Translations under genes and position numbers: made by a program
Shown: in pieces, positions 8,969 through 13,374 of the stretch
Numbering within the stretch: the stretch's first letter is position 1
How the letters are laid out: each line of letters starts with the position of its first letter
From: a virus
Lineage: Duplodnaviria; Heunggongvirae; Uroviricota; Caudoviricetes
IMG/VR virus record: IMGVR_UViG_3300017971_000004
Location: 64,001 to 128,000 of that record
Direction: 5' to 3' (one strand)
Length of the DNA stretch: 64,000 bases
The notes under the pieces: model-generated
Database searches by the model: none
The model's input: only the letters and a program-made list of their open reading frames with translations
Told to the model about the DNA's origin: nothing

Positions 8969-9820
8969 TTATCGTCGTCCACGATGGCCCCCTCCTTCCA
9001 AACCGAGCGCCTTGCGCTTCGCCTCTTCAATGACCTTCCAAGCCTCGTAGTAGCGGTTGAAATGGTCTTCGAGGGCCATGATGAGCCGTCCCATGTTGGC
9101 CTTGTAGAAGCCGGCGCAATTGACGCAGCCGCACTCGACGATCTTCCATTCGTCGTCGACCATGCAGACGTCCATCACGAAGGCGTCGGCGAGCTGGAAG
9201 ACCTTGACCATCTTCTCGCAGAACTCTCGGGCTGCGGGATCGATAGCTCCGCTTTGCACGACCTGTGTCCCGAGCTTGTAGAGACTCCCCGTGACGATCT
9301 CACCGCCCACCACCCAGAAGCGATACTCCTTTTGGATCTTCTTCACCGAGGCGACCTGGATGGGCGTCAGACTGCTCAGCGACGAAGTGTGGCCGTCCGT
9401 GAGCTTCCGCTGCTGGAACTCGCGCCAGCCGTCCTCGTCGAACACCTGGCCGTTGAAATCCTTGGTATCAGCGCACGGGCGGATGAAATAGGCCTGCTTC
9501 TCCCACTTCCAGTCGTCCCGGAACTTCCGAAGCTCCGAGTCCCAGTTGAGAAGATGCTCCCGGTAATGGTTGCGATACACGAAGAAGTGATGATTCGCGT
9601 TCACCAGAACGCCCGGCACCCAGTCGAACTTCTTGGCCAACCGGACCATCTTGAGCGAGCCGAACACGAAGACATCCCGCCGCTTGGTCTGAACTTCGAA
9701 GTTCTCGACGAACGGCAGAACTTTGACGACTTCCCAGTCGAGCTGAAGACGCTCCAACGTCCGCGTCAGAGCATCATACCCTTCCTCGCGGAACACGTTC
9801 TCTTGTATCACATAGAACAT
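8969..9820 (-). CDS. ATP-grasp domain protein
   Basis: C-terminal ADAFVMDVCMVDDEWKIVECGCVNCAGFY resembles the ATP-grasp metal/ATP loop; start placed at MFYVIQ (9820), just downstream of promoter -10 at 9834-9839. Confidence 0.5.
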   Translation of the reverse strand: MFYVIQENVFREEGYDALTRTLERLQLDWEVVKVLPFVENFEVQTKRRDVFVFGSLKMVRLAKKFDWVPGVLVNANHHFFVYRNHYREHLLNWDSELRKFRDDWKWEKQAYFIRPCADTKDFNGQVFDEDGWREFQQRKLTDGHTSSLSSLTPIQVASVKKIQKEYRFWVVGGEIVTGSLYKLGTQVVQSGAIDPAAREFCEKMVKVFQLADAFVMDVCMVDDEWKIVECGCVNCAGFYKANMGRLIMALEDHFNRYYEAWKVIEEAKRKALGLEGGGHRGRR

Positions 9821-9833
9821 CTCTTGCGCTCTG

Positions 9834-9862
9834 ACTATATAGAGGAAAGTTTCCCCTGTCAA
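9834..9862 (-). promoter_or_regulatory. sigma70-like promoter (TTGACA - 17 - TATAGT) for the ATP-grasp gene
   Basis: plus-strand tgtcaa 9857-9862 and actata 9834-9839. Confidence 0.45.
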
Positions 9863-10271: not shown

Positions 10272-10430
10272 CCTTTCTCCTTTCTGCGGCCTTCTGGCTG
10301 ACTATCTTGCTGTCGATCTGTCTGGGGATAATATACAGGATTGGGAGATGGTGGAATCGAACCACTTGCCTCGTGGAGGAGCGGGTTTACAGCCCACCGC
10401 AGGCCCAGCCTGCCTTAGAGCACCTCCCGT

Positions 10431-10519
10431 TGCACGGGGTGGGATTCGAACCCACACTGTCTCTTAAGCGTTGCCCTGGGGCCTGAACCCAGCGCCTCTA
10501 CCAGTTGGGCTACCCGTGC
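10431..10519 (-). tRNA. tRNA-Leu(CAG)-like, class II (long, poorly paired variable arm)
   Basis: hand-folded: acceptor GCACGGG/CCCGTGC, T-arm GTGGG-TTCGAAT-CCCAC, anticodon stem CTGGG/CCCAG loop TTCAGGC. Confidence 0.5.
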
Positions 10520-10557
10520 GCTATCTAGATGCTAATTAGCGTCTAATTAGCATCTGG

Positions 10558-10630
10558 TGGACAGGGACGGAGTCGAACCGCCTACACCCGGAACTTCAAT
10601 CCGGTGCTCTACCAGTTGAGCTACCTGTCC
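10558..10630 (-). tRNA. tRNA-Phe(GAA)
   Basis: clean cloverleaf GGACAGG-TA-GCTC-AACTGGTA-GAGC-A-CCGGA-TTGAAGT-TCCGG-GTGTA-GGCGG-TTCGACT-CCGTC-CCTGTCC-A. Confidence 0.8.
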
Positions 10631-10632
10631 GT

Positions 10633-10705
10633 TGCGCGTGGAGGGATTCGAACCCCAACATCCGGACCCTCAGTCCGGCGACTCTGCCAGTTGGCCTACA
10701 CGCGC
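10633..10705 (-). tRNA. tRNA, anticodon GAG (Leu-type) in a class-I-length (73 nt) body
   Basis: acceptor GCGCGTG/CACGCGC, anticodon stem CCGGA/TCCGG loop CTGAGGG; weak D-stem and 4-nt variable loop. Confidence 0.5.
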
Positions 10706-10772
10706 GTTGTGTTTCACCTGCTGTCAGCAACCTCCGTTGTCGCTCACTTTCGAACGAATCTGATCAACCAAG

Positions 10773-10846
10773 TGCGACCGCCGGGAGTCGAACCCGGAAC
10801 ATCCTGCTTTTGAAACAGGCGACTCTGCCAGTTGGCCTACGGTCGC
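10773..10846 (-). tRNA. tRNA, anticodon CAA (Leu-type) in a class-I-length body
   Basis: acceptor GCGACCG/CGGTCGC, T-arm CCGGG-TTCGACT-CCCGG, anticodon stem CCTGT/GCAGG loop TTCAAAA; D-region identical to previous tRNA. Confidence 0.5.
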
Positions 10847-10850
10847 TCGA

Positions 10851-10923
10851 TGCGTCCGCCAGGATTCGAACCTGGAACCCCCGGTGTTTAAAGCCGGTGC
10901 CTCTGCCGTTGAGCCACGGACGC
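10851..10923 (-). tRNA. tRNA, anticodon UAA (Leu-type) in a class-I-length body
   Basis: acceptor GCGTCCG/CGGACGC, T-arm CCAGG-TTCGAAT-CCTGG, anticodon stem CCGGC/ACCGG (one C.A mismatch) loop TTTAAAC. Confidence 0.45.
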
Positions 10924-10927
10924 TCGG

Positions 10928-11001
10928 CAGGAGAGCCAGGATTCGAACCTGGGTTTGAGGACTTGGAAACCTCCGTGCTGGACCGCTCGCACTACTCTCC
11001 C
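10928..11001 (-). tRNA. tRNA-Trp(CCA)
   Basis: acceptor GGGAGAG/CTCTCCT, D-stem GTGC/GCAC, anticodon loop TTCCAAG. Confidence 0.55.
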
Positions 11002-11003
11002 GT

Positions 11004-11076
11004 GGTGACCGACGAGACTTGAACTCGCAACGACCGGGGCCACATCCCGGCGCTCTACCAGTTGAGCTACGGCCAC
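11004..11076 (-). tRNA. tRNA-His(GTG), discriminator C, no encoded G-1
   Basis: GTGGCCG-TA-GCTC-AACTGGTA-GAGC-G-CCGGG-ATGTGGC-CCCGG-TCGTT-GCGAG-TTCAAGT-CTCGT-CGGTCAC-C. Confidence 0.75.
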
Positions 11077-11078
11077 AG

Positions 11079-11163
11079 CGGAGGACGCAGGGCTCGAACC
11101 TGCACCGGGATGAACCGGACGACGCCTTAGCAGGGCGCTGCGATACCATTCTGCCAGTCCTCC
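11079..11163 (-). tRNA. tRNA-Ser(GCT), class II
   Basis: acceptor GGAGGAC/GTCCTCC, anticodon stem GCGCC/GGCGT loop CTGCTAA, long variable arm with CCGG-TTCAT-CCGG stem. Confidence 0.75.
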
Positions 11164-11228
11164 ACATTAAAATTTTCCTCCATTTTCTTTAATAGTTCGG
11201 ATCCTAATTAAAACTTTCTTCAATACTG
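11164..11228 (-). promoter_or_regulatory. AT-rich (about 28% GC) spacer inside the tRNA array, candidate internal promoter or processing region
   Basis: acattaaaattttcctccattttctttaatagttcggatcctaattaaaactttcttcaatactgag in an otherwise >60% GC region. Confidence 0.3.
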
Positions 11229-11301
11229 AGTCCCGAGCCGGAATCGAACCGGCGTCTGAGGATTTGCAGTCCCCCGCTTGAACCTGCTCAGCTACCGGGA
11301 C
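11229..11301 (-). tRNA. tRNA-Cys(GCA), discriminator U
   Basis: acceptor GTCCCGG/TCGGGAC, anticodon stem GGGGA/TCCTC loop CTGCAAA, T-arm GCCGG-TTCGATT-CCGGC. Confidence 0.7.
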
Positions 11302-11304
11302 AAG

Positions 11305-11376
11305 CAGGGCCGGGCGGAGTCGAACCGCCGTACTCGGGTCCAAAGCCCGATGCTCTACACGTTGAGCTACGACCCC
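11305..11376 (-). tRNA. tRNA-Gln(TTG)
   Basis: GGGGTCG-TA-GCTC-AACGTGTA-GAGC-A-TCGGG-CTTTGGA-CCCGA-GTAC-GGCGG-TTCGACT-CCGCC-CGGCCCT. Confidence 0.7.
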
Positions 11377-11378
11377 GG

Positions 11379-11468
11379 AGGAGGGCGAGGGATTCGAACC
11401 CCCACGCCGGGACAACGCCGACGACCGCGATTTTCGAGACCGCTCCAATACCGTTCTGGCAGCCCTCC
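11379..11468 (-). tRNA. tRNA-Ser(CGA), class II; 3-prime CC encoded and abutting next tRNA
   Basis: acceptor GGAGGGC/GCCCTCC, anticodon stem GCGGT/ATCGC loop CTCGAAA, long variable arm. Confidence 0.7.
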
Positions 11469-11513
11469 GATTGGTAAATCTTTCCATCACTTAACACTTC
11501 TTTACCGTTCGAG

Positions 11514-11600
11514 CGGAAGCGCCTGGACTCGAACCAGGACCACGGGAAACCGTGCTCTCGGCCTTCCAAGCCGGGGCCTTACCGTTGAGGCTACGCTTCC
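11514..11600 (-). tRNA. tRNA-Ser(GGA), class II
   Basis: acceptor GGAAGCG/CGCTTCC, D-stem GCCT/AGGC, anticodon loop TTGGAAG, variable arm CACGG-TTTC-CCGTG, T-arm CCTGG-TTCGAGT-CCAGG. Confidence 0.65.
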
Positions 11601-11738
11601 GAACTGGAAACGATTAGCTTAGATAAAGCAGTGATTGATGCTGGATAAACGAGGAGAGACACCAGAGGCGGGGAGCCTTGGCGGTGGGGGCGATCATCTT
11701 TCCGATTCGCTTTCGACGTTTCATCGGTCTCTCCTCGG

Positions 11739-11812
11739 TCCGGGCGAGAGGATTTGAACCTCCAACCTCTAGATCCCGAATCTAGCGTGCTACCAGATTG
11801 CACTACACCCGG
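11739..11812 (-). tRNA. tRNA-Pro(CGG)
   Basis: CCGGGTG-TA-GTGC-AATCTGGTA-GCAC-G-CTAGA-TTCGGGA-TCTAG-AGGTT-GGAGG-TTCAAAT-CCTCT-CGCCCGG-A. Confidence 0.75.
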
Positions 11813-11942: not shown

Positions 11943-12437
11943 TCAAGCAGAAAGTTCAGAGTCGAGCTTTTCCTTCAAGCCGGTGCCGCTCTCCGTGGTC
12001 ATCCCCCACTGGATGTCCTCATAGGGAATCTCGTTCTCGCGCATCAGCTCCTGGATCAACGCGCGGCCTACTCCCTTTCCCTGCGCCTCGGGCTTGACCT
12101 CGATCATCTTGAGATGCGTCTCGCCGCGCCAGAGAGTGTAGTCCACGTAGCCGAGCCCTTCGCCGGTCTTTGCGTCCTTGGCGACGATCCAGGCGTCCCA
12201 CTGGTCGCCGAGGGCATCACCCCCGTGCTCGAAGGCGAGGGCGTCGCCCTGCTGGGCGTTCCGACCCGTTACGAAAGGAAGCAGCCGAAGAAGAAGCATC
12301 CACTGAGAGAACGCGTTCTCCTCTTCGAAGCGTCTTTTCTCCCGCTCGATGGCCCGCTCAGGTTCATCCTCTTCGATCTCGGGCACCTCGTCACCGATGC
12401 GACGAAGGGCTTCCGTGTTCAGTCCGTGGAGCCGCAT
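11943..12437 (-). CDS. GNAT-family N-acetyltransferase with conserved N-terminal leader MRLHGLNTEALRRI
   Basis: acetyl-CoA binding motif MIEVKPEAQGKGVGRALIQELMRE; start trimmed to the MRLHGLN methionine. Confidence 0.6.
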   Translation of the reverse strand: MRLHGLNTEALRRIGDEVPEIEEDEPERAIEREKRRFEEENAFSQWMLLLRLLPFVTGRNAQQGDALAFEHGGDALGDQWDAWIVAKDAKTGEGLGYVDYTLWRGETHLKMIEVKPEAQGKGVGRALIQELMRENEIPYEDIQWGMTTESGTGLKEKLDSELSA

Positions 12438-13090
12438 CAGTCCTCCCAGACCGAATCGATGAGGTCGTAGATGAGATCGACCTGCTCGTCGGCGAAGTGC
12501 CAGCGGACATCGATGTTGTCGTCGGCCCATTTCTTCGGATCGCCGTCTAGCTCCTCGGACATCGCGCACCAGTCGGCCACCATCTCCGCGATGTCGAGGT
12601 CGCCCATCCCGGTACCGTCGATGACCTCGTCGGGAGCTGCATCCCGGTCGTCCTCGTCGACCACATCGAGCGTCTCCATCTGATGATACTCAGGGTGATG
12701 CTTGCTGTTCAGGATGTGGTGCTGCGTGGCGACGTTGATCGCGTCCTCCATCCCCCCGGGCAGCTCGCACTCGATGCCCTCATCCTCGCACTTGTAGCGC
12801 CAGGTCAGCCAGATGTACGGCTCCAGCTCGGGCTCTTCGAACTTGATCTGGTCGTGTTCTTCACCGCGCTCGATCAGGCCGTCGAAACCGTCCCAGGCAT
12901 CCTCGATCTTCTTGCAGTACTTCTGCACGCGCTCGATGTGCTTGTTGGTCCGGTCGTAGAAGTGCTGTTCCATCTCGTCGGTGATCTGCTGAGCGACACG
13001 CCGAAGGCTGTCAAGCGCGCCCTGGACAGTCATGCCACTACGCATTCCGACCCGGATGATCGCGTTCCGGTCGAGTCCCCGAAGTCTCAT
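12437..13090 (-). CDS. acidic hypothetical protein with N-terminal leader MRLRGLDRNAIIRVG
   Basis: start trimmed to MRLRGLD; ATGA overlap with previous gene. Confidence 0.5.
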   Translation of the reverse strand: MRLRGLDRNAIIRVGMRSGMTVQGALDSLRRVAQQITDEMEQHFYDRTNKHIERVQKYCKKIEDAWDGFDGLIERGEEHDQIKFEEPELEPYIWLTWRYKCEDEGIECELPGGMEDAINVATQHHILNSKHHPEYHQMETLDVVDEDDRDAAPDEVIDGTGMGDLDIAEMVADWCAMSEELDGDPKKWADDNIDVRWHFADEQVDLIYDLIDSVWED

Positions 13091-13374
13091 CCCTCTTTCA
13101 CCGGAGGAAGGTCCCGCAGGACTTCCCACGCCTCGTTGAAGATCCAAGGAGTCTCATCGTATCGTCCATTCTGCTGCTTGAGTAGCACCACGTAACAGTG
13201 ATCATCGATGGCGATCTGAGCACGACCTCCGTACTCGTCTGCCAGCGTAGCTACGGGCTCGAACTCCGCGCCCTCCGGATCATCGTTGTCCCAGATAGCT
13301 CGATCATCGGTCTCCACTTGCACGTATCTCGCGATACGTCGAAGTGACTCTCGGTTGAGACCGTGGAGTCTCAC
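13087..13374 (-). CDS. small hypothetical protein with N-terminal leader (GTG start) MRLHGLNRESLRRIARY
   Basis: 95 aa ORF; GTG start verified by hand at 13372-13374. Confidence 0.5.
   Translation of the reverse strand: MRLHGLNRESLRRIARYVQVETDDRAIWDNDDPEGAEFEPVATLADEYGGRAQIAIDDHCYVVLLKQQNGRYDETPWIFNEAWEVLRDLPPVKEG

Follow-up and report, generated by a model that had tools for sequence, protein, structure and literature searches.

Type I tRNA-Leu genes with anticodons GAG, CAA and UAA in the tRNA array of an uncultured large phage

A dense array of fourteen tRNA genes, recognized by ARAGORN and Rfam, is located on the minus strand of the window, which is the 64,000-nucleotide stretch of DNA from an uncultured large phage that was analyzed here (Table 1). 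An earlier note, prepared by hand folding, had described thirteen tRNAs in this region, and all of them were recovered by ARAGORN at the same positions and with the same anticodons (CGG, GGA, CGA, UUG, GCA, GCU, GUG, CCA, UAA, CAA, GAG, GAA and CAG). The count was nevertheless one too low, because a class II tRNA-Tyr(GUA) sits 2 nt downstream of tRNA-Leu(CAG), just beyond the start coordinate of that note; the 5' end of this fourteenth member was placed at 10428 by seven acceptor pairs (GGGAGGT with ATCTCCC) and A73. The spacers, which had been given as 2-4 nt throughout, measure 0-5 nt at eight junctions but 35, 44, 64, 66 and 136 nt at five others. A scan of the array for promoters and terminators gave none above shuffled expectation. 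The 35-nt spacer between tRNA-Phe and tRNA-Leu(CAG) contains a perfect 12-bp inverted repeat. Twelve of the fourteen genes scored above the gathering score of the Rfam tRNA model, including all three of the short tRNA-Leu genes discussed below. Ten of the tRNAs had been regarded as clean, a description that has to be withdrawn for tRNA-Leu(CAG), whose variable region is long (20 nt) and unstructured, forming no stable stem and reaching 0 kcal/mol when folded alone.

Table 1. Features of the tRNA array, with positions in the window
Feature	Position	Strand	Basis
tRNA-Tyr(GUA), class II, fourteenth member	10342..10428	-	ARAGORN 10342-10425; covariance model alignment 10342-10428
tRNA-Leu(CAG), 89 nt, Leu-type D-arm	10431..10519	-	ARAGORN; Rfam 53.7 bits
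Perfect 12-bp inverted repeat GATGCTAATTAG-ACG-CTAATTAGCATC	10528..10554		read from sequence
tRNA-Phe(GAA), CCA encoded	10555..10630	-	ARAGORN, Rfam
Type I tRNA-Leu(GAG), 73 nt	10633..10705	-	ARAGORN; Rfam 47.3 bits; family covariance model 73.2 bits
Type I tRNA-Leu(CAA), 74 nt	10773..10846	-	ARAGORN; Rfam 52.3 bits; family covariance model 82.0 bits
Type I tRNA-Leu(UAA), 73 nt	10851..10923	-	ARAGORN; Rfam 55.3 bits; family covariance model 66.7 bits
tRNA-Trp(CCA)	10926..11001	-	ARAGORN, Rfam
tRNA-His(GUG)	11004..11076	-	ARAGORN, Rfam
tRNA-Ser(GCU), class II	11078..11163	-	ARAGORN, Rfam
tRNA-Cys(GCA)	11228..11301	-	ARAGORN, Rfam
tRNA-Gln(UUG)	11304..11376	-	ARAGORN, Rfam
tRNA-Ser(CGA), class II	11377..11468	-	ARAGORN; under Rfam gathering score
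tRNA-Ser(GGA), class II	11513..11600	-	ARAGORN, Rfam
tRNA-Pro(CGG), first array gene in the direction of transcription	11737..11812	-	ARAGORN, Rfam

The central observation of the earlier note, namely three adjacent tRNAs of 73-74 nt with Leu-type anticodons (GAG, CAA and UAA), A73 and no long variable arm, was confirmed. Their variable loops of 4-5 nt, which read AUGU(U) in GAG, AUGUU in CAA and GGGUU in UAA, do not agree with the class II definition of a variable arm longer than 10 nt with a stem-loop. A folding error, which had been entertained at that time, is ruled out by ARAGORN, Rfam and the family covariance model described below. The anticodon loops consist of 7 nt with U33 (CUGAGGG in GAG, UUCAAAA in CAA and UUUAAAC in UAA), and position 37 obeys the rule for Leu isoacceptors, with G37 accompanying GAG and A37 accompanying CAA and UAA; tRNA-Leu(CAA) carries A36-A37-A38. 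All three molecules possess U8-A14, A15:U48, G18G19, A20a and A73, begin their acceptor stems with G1-C72, C2-G71 and G3-C70, and bear the canonical T-loop UUCGAAU. Their D-arm is of the Leu type, being constructed by a 3-bp stem with a C13-A22 mismatch and a loop AAY(N)GGCAG, and reads GGCC-AACUGGCAG-AGUC in GAG and CAA and GCUC-AACGGCAG-AGGC in UAA, where the D-loop has 8 nt; the same Leu-type D-arm is found in tRNA-Leu(CAG) with its long variable region. These Leu-type features correspond to the determinants of the E. coli leucyl-tRNA synthetase (LeuRS) together with an anti-SerRS determinant (PMC9976931). The stems are fully paired apart from the first T-stem pair of tRNA-Leu(GAG), which is lost or U-C, and a C31-A39 mismatch in tRNA-Leu(UAA). 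The three genes reach 47-55 bits with Rfam against a threshold of 29 bits, while their single-sequence RNAfold z-scores are modest (-1.9 to -3.2).

Short tRNA-Leu genes of this kind were sought with a pattern composed of a Leu-type D-loop, class I spacing and NAA/NAG anticodons, in which A73 was left unspecified and the Phe anticodon GAA was allowed. The pattern matched at least 120 loci in IMG/VR viral contigs and at least 120 loci in GTDB genomes, the latter being mostly Actinomycetota chromosomes among the matches listed. A Leu anticodon together with A73 was present in 239 of 239 parsed matches listed, and a Phe anticodon in none. Across 90 members of the family, pairing is found in 98.3% of stem cells, compensatory changes occur at 19 of 20 pairs, and the positions of the Leu-type D-arm are invariant; the covariation amounts to 0.96, compared with 0.22 for shuffles and 0.12-0.18 for slid controls. 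When the array was scored with a covariance model of the family from which the window sequences had been left out, CAA, GAG and UAA, in this order, came out on top, followed by tRNA-Leu(CAG) with 63.1 bits, tRNA-Phe with 62.0 bits and the remaining tRNAs with at most 50.6 bits, so that the margin over tRNA-Phe is a modest 5-20 bits only. Short-arm tRNA-Leu is a common form among Actinobacteria and also in many phages. An origin of the window genes from tRNA-Phe through a change of GAA to YAA was considered and rejected, because their D-arm is Leu-type, unlike the 4-bp GCUC/GAGC stem of tRNA-Phe in the array, and because GAA did not occur in the parsed matches even though the pattern permitted it.

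CTC, CTT and TTG, which these tRNAs would serve, are used as ordinary leucine codons in the window. In its long ORFs, leucine is encoded by CTC (39%), CTG (31%), CTT (16%), TTG (11%), CTA (2%) and TTA (0.6%). The anticodon GAG corresponds to CUC and CUU, which account for 55% of leucine codons in the window, CAA corresponds to UUG, and UAA to UUA and possibly UUG; together with tRNA-Leu(CAG) for CUG, the set covers 98% of leucine codons used in the long ORFs. The meaning of the codons was assessed by aligning four window proteins to 15 related phage loci. CTC, CTT and TTG of the window are aligned with Leu in 66-78% of cases, compared with 61% for CTG, and with Leu or Ile/Val/Met/Phe in 85-86%, which equals the value for CTG. 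Moreover, in the related phages they are exchanged freely for any of the six Leu codons. In the window, CTC, CTT and TTG mean leucine.

The premise of the earlier note that bacterial tRNA-Leu is always class II proved to be false. In Streptomyces coelicolor, the single LeuRS of the organism was shown in vitro to leucylate a type I tRNA-Leu(CAA) (Fan, Huang, Ji & Wang 2019, NAR 47:6369, PMC6614811), and the form is common in the scans described above. The kcat/Km of this synthetase was reported as 6.25 s-1 uM-1 for type I tRNA-Leu(CAA) and 14.2 s-1 uM-1 for type II, and U8-A14 was identified as an identity element common to both types, while the type I molecule was charged neither by E. coli LeuRS nor by one Streptomyces LeuRS (PMC6614811). 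The same work states that nearly all tRNA-Leu of bacteria belong to type II, and a further paper regards tRNA-Leu as long-armed everywhere except in animal mitochondria (PMC9976931). In Mycobacterium tuberculosis, it is tRNALeu-2, 3 and 5 that are noted for a long variable loop (PMC11541572), from which we take the other two of the five tRNA-Leu to have none. No description of short-arm tRNA-Leu in phages was found in the literature, where the term type I tRNALeu was met only in Fan et al. 2019.

The S. coelicolor molecule resembles the window genes in its Leu anticodon, 5-nt variable loop, U8-A14, canonical D- and T-loops and A73, as well as in its coexistence with long-arm tRNA-Leu. In contrast, it is chromosomal and CAA alone is short, whereas the window genes are phage-encoded and GAG, CAA and UAA are all short; its variable loop ACAGC carries C48, whereas the window genes have U48 and keep the A15:U48 pair required by E. 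coli LeuRS. The chromosomal type I tRNA-Leu genes of Actinomycetota (UAA, CAA, UAG and CAG in the GTDB scan), which were included in the covariance model giving the window genes 67-82 bits, share with them the 74-nt architecture, C12 C13 A14 A15, G18 G19 C20 A G A G and A73. They differ in being single genes in conserved housekeeping neighborhoods (Ppx/GppA, POT transporter) rather than members of dense arrays, and in their acceptor stems, which typically start with GCCCCCG instead of the GCGNNNG of the window; the anticodon GAG is absent among 119 parsed cellular type I matches listed from GTDB. Class II tRNA-Leu of E. coli and of a related jumbo phage contig (L009) has the same anticodons, D-arm (3-bp stem, 13-22 mismatch, A15, G18G19, A20a), A73 and C2-G71, but owns a variable arm of 13-17 nt with a 4-5 bp stem that is missing in the window genes. 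Animal mitochondrial type I tRNA-Leu is alike in the short variable loop, the Leu anticodon and A73, but it has reduced or aberrant D- and T-loops and a dedicated LeuRS, unlike the canonical G18G19 and T-loop of the window genes, and the human mitochondrial tRNA-Leu is not charged by S. coelicolor LeuRS (PMC6614811).

Annotated tRNA-Leu genes of 73-78 nt also exist in GenBank records of cultured phages, including Gordonia phages Nedarya and Boopy, Corynebacterium phage Lederberg, Vibrio phage 1.081.O, Erwinia phage phiEa21-4, Lactobacillus phage Iacchus and Bacillus phage PBC2. These genes have the Leu-type D-arm, A73 and a 5-nt variable loop and often lie within tRNA arrays, but there are usually one or two per phage, compared with three consecutive genes in the window besides the long-arm tRNA-Leu(CAG). 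The tRNA-Leu(UAG) of the Vibrio phage shares 79% identity with the window GAG gene, together with an identical 5' strand of the acceptor and the same rare GGCC/AGUC D-stem. No DNA-level kinship between these cultured phages and the window phage was detected, and at the protein level one polymerase and one other protein were tested, giving distant similarity only. Nor was a close relative found that would allow a gene-by-gene comparison of the array: megablast of the array against 50,697 phage records returned no match, and IMG/VR contains no exact copy of the 23-mer common to tRNA-Leu(GAG) and tRNA-Leu(CAA). The flanking ATP-grasp R2K and DUF5662 proteins led to 13 related IMG/VR loci on contigs of 13-340 kb, only one of which, L009, carries tRNAs; its tRNA-Leu genes, including GAG, are class II, which indicates that the short form is not a conserved trait of the lineage. 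Similar triple type I tRNA-Leu arrays are present on contigs binned as Planctomycetota, with which no detectable proteins of the window are shared. A search with PHROG and Pfam of 13 window ORFs, mostly the largest, found no LeuRS or other synthetase; these ORFs held a helicase, an SbcC-like protein, a DNA polymerase A, a metallophosphatase, an ATP-grasp protein, a GNAT protein and a DUF5662 protein.

Taken together, the three genes are very probably genuine type I tRNA-Leu genes, carried in a phage array that would supplement the tRNA pool of the host during infection. Of the options listed in the earlier note, that of unusual Leu decoders is thereby supported by the Leu anticodons, the family membership and the codon evidence. 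Transcription of the array from the minus strand would yield one or a few precursors, to be cleaved by the tRNA processing enzymes of the host, as the spacers of 0-5 nt suggest, and CCA would be added by the host enzyme, since no CCA is encoded in these genes as read from the sequence. Subsequently, the host LeuRS would charge the three tRNAs with leucine, presumably recognizing features of the elbow and D-arm common with class II tRNA-Leu rather than the long arm. The charged tRNAs would then decode CUC and CUU (GAG), UUG (CAA) and UUA and UUG (UAA), while tRNA-Leu(CAG) would read CUG. Leucylation would depend on a host LeuRS that accepts type I molecules, like that of S. coelicolor and unlike that of E. 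coli when given the Streptomyces tRNA.

A further proposal, which is compatible with the supplementary role and would add to it, is that the short form was selected in phages as a counter-defence, escaping toxins or nucleases that recognize the class II long arm, so that short tRNA-Leu would survive when the host tRNA-Leu is inactivated. Although we judge it unlikely, several observations agree with it: Vibrio, Erwinia, Bacillus and Lactobacillus, which are not known to have type I tRNA-Leu, are hosts of phages that carry the short form; the resemblance of the window GAG gene to the Vibrio phage gene hints at spread between phages; and the type I Leu gene of Corynebacterium phage Lederberg adjoins an RtcB-like RNA ligase. 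However, the same array retains long-arm tRNA-Ser (three genes), tRNA-Tyr and tRNA-Leu(CAG), and no defence or anti-defence gene was identified beside it among the 13 window ORFs searched with PHROG and Pfam. Actinomycetota cells use type I tRNA-Leu themselves, and simple acquisition from such hosts therefore explains much of the distribution in phages. To our knowledge, no defence system targets tRNA-Leu via the long arm. MenT3 prefers tRNA-Ser and does not favor tRNA-Leu (PMC11541572).

The imperfections noted above raise the question of decay, in which at least one of the three would be a degenerating or non-functional copy carried along in the array. The T-stem defect of GAG, and the C31-A39 mismatch of UAA combined with the rarity of its codon UUA, are the reasons why one or both could be decaying, and the modest RNAfold z-scores and the class II tRNA-Leu found instead in L009 point in the same direction. 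Single mismatches of such a kind are, however, common in working tRNAs, and the stems are otherwise fully paired. None of the three has lost an invariant tRNA position or a Leu identity position, the Rfam scores lie well over the threshold, and the codons that would fall to tRNA-Leu(GAG) are the most frequent ones for leucine; taken together, these points make decay quite improbable. Mischarging or recoding, by which the tRNAs would place a different amino acid at Leu codons and which the earlier note had also proposed, is scarcely credible, because the superficial mismatch of a Leu anticodon on a class I body, reminiscent of yeast mitochondrial recoding tRNAs (PMC7609411), is contradicted by the codon alignments, in which CTC, CTT and TTG act as ordinary Leu codons, by the lack of G3-U70 (Ala identity) and of the anticodon-based identity of Phe, Val, Ile and Met, by the presence of all Leu identity elements, and, by analogy, by the leucylation of the same architecture in S. 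coelicolor.

As type I tRNA-Leu, the three genes are ordinary examples of a form already described and annotated in many genomes, and there is no case for recoding or for a new class of RNA. They may also provide a clue to the host, as the phage would need a host LeuRS that accepts type I tRNA-Leu, an ability documented for an actinomycete LeuRS but lacking in E. coli LeuRS when the Streptomyces tRNA was the substrate. A broader reading, which is speculative and rather doubtful, is that short-arm tRNA-Leu represents a major architecture favored by phages and passed among them, also where the hosts belong to Vibrio, Erwinia, Bacillus or Lactobacillus, with tRNA-Leu of their own that are thought to be all long-armed. 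If so, LeuRS across bacteria would accept type I substrates with U48, contrary to the result obtained for E. coli with the C48 Streptomyces tRNA, or else the short tRNA-Leu of phages would act beyond ordinary decoding, for example in resisting arm-directed host toxins. The window would then be an extreme case, in which three of four Leu isoacceptors have been converted, including GAG, which serves 55% of the Leu codons and has no short counterpart among the cellular matches listed. According to the scans, short-arm tRNA-Leu is far commoner than textbooks and recent reviews (PMC9976931, PMC6614811) state, and establishing this by a census, together with charging of the phage versions in hosts that have long-arm tRNA-Leu only, would amend the literature on tRNA identity in a modest but genuine way.

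The three neighbouring minus-strand genes with the anticodons GAG, CAA and UAA are real tRNA genes and encode genuine type I tRNA-Leu, the form with a short variable loop. ARAGORN found 14 tRNA genes in the array and none in the rest of the 64-kb window, and it recovered all 13 genes and anticodons named in the earlier note, whose total was one short, Tyr-GUA lying just past its start coordinate. The tight packing described there, with spacers of 2-4 nt, holds at eight junctions (0-5 nt), whereas the other five measure 35, 44, 64, 66 and 136 nt; the array is dense, though its spacing is uneven. Twelve of the 14 genes lay above the gathering score of the Rfam tRNA model, in which the short tRNA-Leu obtained 47.3, 52.3 and 55.3 bits (threshold, 29), and their length of 73-74 nt, variable loops of 4-5 nt and A73 were confirmed.

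Array genes in transcription order (ARAGORN) and other features; coordinates refer to the window unless a contig or accession is named, and bits are scores in the type I Leu covariance model
Feature	Coordinates	Strand	Length	Bits	Remark
tRNA array	10342-11812	minus			14 genes
1 Pro-CGG		minus			
2 Ser-GGA		minus			
3 Ser-CGA		minus			
4 Gln-UUG		minus			
5 Cys-GCA		minus			
6 Ser-GCU		minus			
7 His-GUG		minus		50.6	
8 Trp-CCA		minus			
9 Leu-UAA	10851-10923	minus	73 nt	66.7	type I
10 Leu-CAA	10773-10846	minus	74 nt	82.0	type I
11 Leu-GAG	10633-10705	minus	73 nt	73.2	type I
12 Phe-GAA		minus		62.0	
13 Leu-CAG	10431-10519	minus		63.1	long arm, variable region GGCAACGCUUAAGAGACAGU
14 Tyr-GUA		minus			
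Spacer	10706-10772		64-66 nt		
Spacer	11164-11227		64-66 nt		AGTATTGAAGAAAGTTTTAATTAGGATCC...
Inverted repeat	10528-10554				GATGCTAATTAG-ACG-CTAATTAGCATC
ORF	11614-11724	minus	36 codons		MKRRKRIGKMIAPTAKAPRLWCLSSFIQHQSLLYLS
ATP-grasp R2K-family (PF14243/PF18299) and DUF5662 proteins	8969-9862 and 12437-13147	minus			
GNAT acetyltransferase	11943-12569				
L143 array	L143 3550-3912				Leu-CAG, -UAA, -GAG
L198 array	L198 301-2422				Leu-CAG, -UAA, -GAG
Lederberg Leu-CAA	MK977712.1 44777-44853				type I
Vibrio phage 1.081.O Leu-UAG	MG592456.1 201403-201479				
L009 CUA-anticodon tRNA	L009 15684-15758				"Pyl" by ARAGORN

Several features lie between and beside the tRNA genes. The two spacers of 64-66 nt within the otherwise tightly packed array could be relics of lost tRNA genes or internal promoters of another type, since a sigma-70 scan returned no promoter there; spacer 11164-11227 is strongly AT-rich. 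The perfect 12-bp inverted repeat, AT-rich against a genome of 58% GC, takes up the 35 nt that separate tRNA-Phe from tRNA-Leu(CAG); processing, protein binding or a terminator-like hairpin are possible roles. Between tRNA-Pro and tRNA-Ser(GGA), the 136-nt gap is partly filled by an ORF with GAGGAG ahead at Shine-Dalgarno distance. The array is flanked by genes for a GNAT acetyltransferase, an ATP-grasp protein and a DUF5662 protein, the latter two recurring, with 41-56% identity, in 13 contigs of IMG/VR that reach 340 kb in length.

In the cloverleaf reading, the three short tRNA-Leu share G1-C72, C2-G71, G3-C70 and U8, a D-stem whose three pairs precede a C13-A22 mismatch, the D-loop A14 A15 C (U) G18 G19 C A20a G, U48 closing the variable loop, and a canonical T-loop (UUCGAAU or UUCGACU). 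Position 37 is G with GAG and A with CAA and UAA, matching the Leu isoacceptor pattern; the blemishes are an improper first T-stem pair in GAG and a C31-A39 mismatch in UAA. Leucyl-tRNA synthetase (LeuRS) of Escherichia coli depends on A73, the A15-U48 Levitt pair, G18G19, A20a and D/T-loop contacts, without relying on the anticodon or the long arm, and C2-G71 is an anti-determinant against SerRS (PMC9976931); all of these elements are present in the three tRNAs. The same D-arm design (GCCC-AACUGGUAG-AGGC) recurs in the long-arm Leu-CAG, whereas Phe has an ordinary 4-bp GCUC/GAGC stem.

Family membership was assessed with a gap-free alignment of 90 type I Leu members (70 viral and 20 cellular, below 85% pairwise identity, the window excluded), in which pairing holds in 98.3% of stem cells, double changes occur at 19 of 20 pairs, and covariation scores 0.96, compared with 0.22 in shuffles and 0.12-0.18 in slid controls. 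The covariance model derived from this alignment, run over the array with filters off, placed the three short tRNA-Leu first, with a modest lead over Phe and with the unlisted genes below His; they are therefore the best fit to the family. Leu-CAG is the only long-arm tRNA-Leu of the array, and its 20-nt variable region, folded alone, gave 0 kcal/mol and no stable stem, in contrast to the 4-bp arm stems with GCAA loops in the class II tRNA-Leu of the related contig L009 (3300038679_000357). Because this region ends in ACAGU, the variable loop most often seen in the type I family, the Leu-CAG gene looks like a type I tRNA-Leu carrying a 15-nt insertion.

The earlier note had found the trio strange on the premise that bacterial tRNA-Leu is always class II, probably because general reviews still state the long arm, one of them for all organisms but animal mitochondria (PMC9976931). 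This textbook generalisation does not hold, as is evident from Actinomycetota and phage genes and from Streptomyces coelicolor, an exact parallel, whose five tRNA-Leu comprise four of type II and a single type I tRNA-Leu(CAA) with a variable loop of 5 nt (PMC6614811). Its single LeuRS leucylates both types (Fan et al. 2019, PMC6614811), with kcat/Km of 6.25 s-1 uM-1 for type I and 14.2 for type II; U8-A14 is an identity element common to both, acceptance of type I is decided by the leucine-specific domain of LeuRS, and neither E. coli LeuRS nor one other Streptomyces LeuRS charged the type I tRNA (PMC6614811). In Mycobacterium tuberculosis, tRNALeu-2, 3 and 5 are described as having a long variable loop (MenT3 toxin paper, PMC11541572), a wording by which the remaining two of five would lack it, in agreement with the Mycobacterium matches in GTDB. 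The literature search returned no paper discussing short-form tRNA-Leu in phages.

Annotated class-I-length tRNA-Leu are present in cultured phages. A distant BLAST search of GenBank phages with the three genes as queries retrieved them from Gordonia phages Nedarya (CAG, 75 nt) and Boopy (UAG, 75 nt; UAA, 76 nt), Corynebacterium phage Lederberg (CAA, 74 nt plus CCA) and Vibrio phage 1.081.O (UAG, 74 nt plus CCA), and a second search added Erwinia phage phiEa21-4 (AAG), Lactobacillus phage Iacchus (UAG) and Bacillus phage PBC2 (UAG); all share the D-arm, 5-nt variable loop and A73 of the window trio. An IUPAC pattern of Leu-type D-loop, class-I spacing and NAA or NAG anticodon, with Phe GAA permitted and position 73 free, gave at least 120 matches in IMG/VR viral contigs and at least 120 in GTDB species genomes. 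The 120 viral matches listed carry UAA (58), UAG (30), CAA (25), CAG (3), GAG (3) and AAG (1), and 119 form a good cloverleaf; the 119 parsed among the GTDB matches listed carry UAA (69), CAA (28), UAG (15) and CAG (7), with no GAG or AAG. Phe GAA is absent from both sets, and A73 is invariant (120/120 and 119/119).

The GTDB matches listed come mostly from Actinomycetota (Nocardia, Mycobacterium, Rhodococcus, Corynebacterium, Gordonia, Amycolatopsis, Bifidobacterium and many more) and are cellular genes, as opposed to prophage cargo. A Ppx/GppA phosphatase gene recurs close to the UAA gene in Nocardia, Rhodococcus, Bifidobacterium and Arcanobacterium, and in the Nocardia genomes a POT-family transporter gene adjoins the UAA gene as well. 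L143 and L198, contigs binned as Planctomycetota MAGs, each hold a phage-like tRNA array with a trio of type I tRNA-Leu in the style of the window; in L143 these stand 2-16 nt apart and a Tyr gene follows. The two contigs may derive from phages that were mis-binned, or from prophages, and no proteins shared with the window were detected. The single tRNA of Lederberg, its tRNA-Leu(CAA), sits immediately downstream of a gene for an RtcB-like RNA ligase, a pairing suggestive of tRNA repair or counter-defence. The Vibrio phage UAG tRNA is 79% identical to the window GAG tRNA, with the same 5' acceptor strand GCGCGUG and uncommon GGCC/AGUC D-stem, despite unrelated hosts and genomes, which may reflect tRNA gene exchange between phages or convergence.

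Recoding, which the earlier note had entertained, would require the codons read by the trio to have left leucine. In four window proteins (DNA polymerase, helicase, ATP-grasp protein and DUF5662) compared with 15 related IMG/VR loci at 41-65% identity, leucine was faced by 66% of CTC, 74% of CTT, 78% of TTG and 61% of CTG, rising to 81-86% for each when Ile, Val, Met and Phe were added. The relatives use all six Leu codons at these positions, CTC facing CTG 26, CTC 27, TTG 22 and TTA 18 times; CTC, CTT and TTG are therefore synonymous with CTG, and sense-codon reassignment is excluded as far as sequence data can do so. Across 31 long non-overlapping window ORFs (13,090 codons), leucine is written as CTC (39%) and CTT (16%), read by GAG; CTG (31%), read by CAG; TTG (11%), read by CAA and possibly UAA; TTA (0.6%), read by UAA; and CTA (2%), which has no reader in the array. 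The most used Leu codons are thus those of the GAG tRNA, and the four tRNA-Leu together serve 98% of usage.

The genome to which the window belongs is large, uncultured and phage-like, has a GC content of about 58% and carries most of its genes on the minus strand. Family A DNA polymerase, a helicase and an SbcC-like protein are encoded in the window, and a scan of 13 of its ORFs gave no LeuRS. No cultured phage resembled the array at the DNA level, the polymerase and one other protein retrieved distant relatives only in tblastn, and the IMG/VR relatives are contigs of 160-340 kb. One of them, the jumbo-phage contig L009 (255 kb), carries 26 tRNAs in a 20.7-kb stretch, and its tRNA-Leu (UAG, GAG and CAG) have the normal class II form, so the lineage as a whole is not fixed for the short one. 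The L009 array also holds a 95-nt "Val-AAC" and a CUA-anticodon tRNA that may be an amber suppressor.

We infer that the three type I tRNAs are expressed, processed and charged, and that they most likely serve the phage as ordinary leucine decoders, adding to an already known kind of tRNA-Leu. The phage versions have U48, whereas the Streptomyces type I tRNA has C48, a difference that may be relevant to acceptance by LeuRS. The puzzle is that the short form is frequent in phages, including those of hosts thought to have only long-arm tRNA-Leu, and it is sharpened by the failure of E. coli LeuRS to charge the Streptomyces type I tRNA (PMC6614811).
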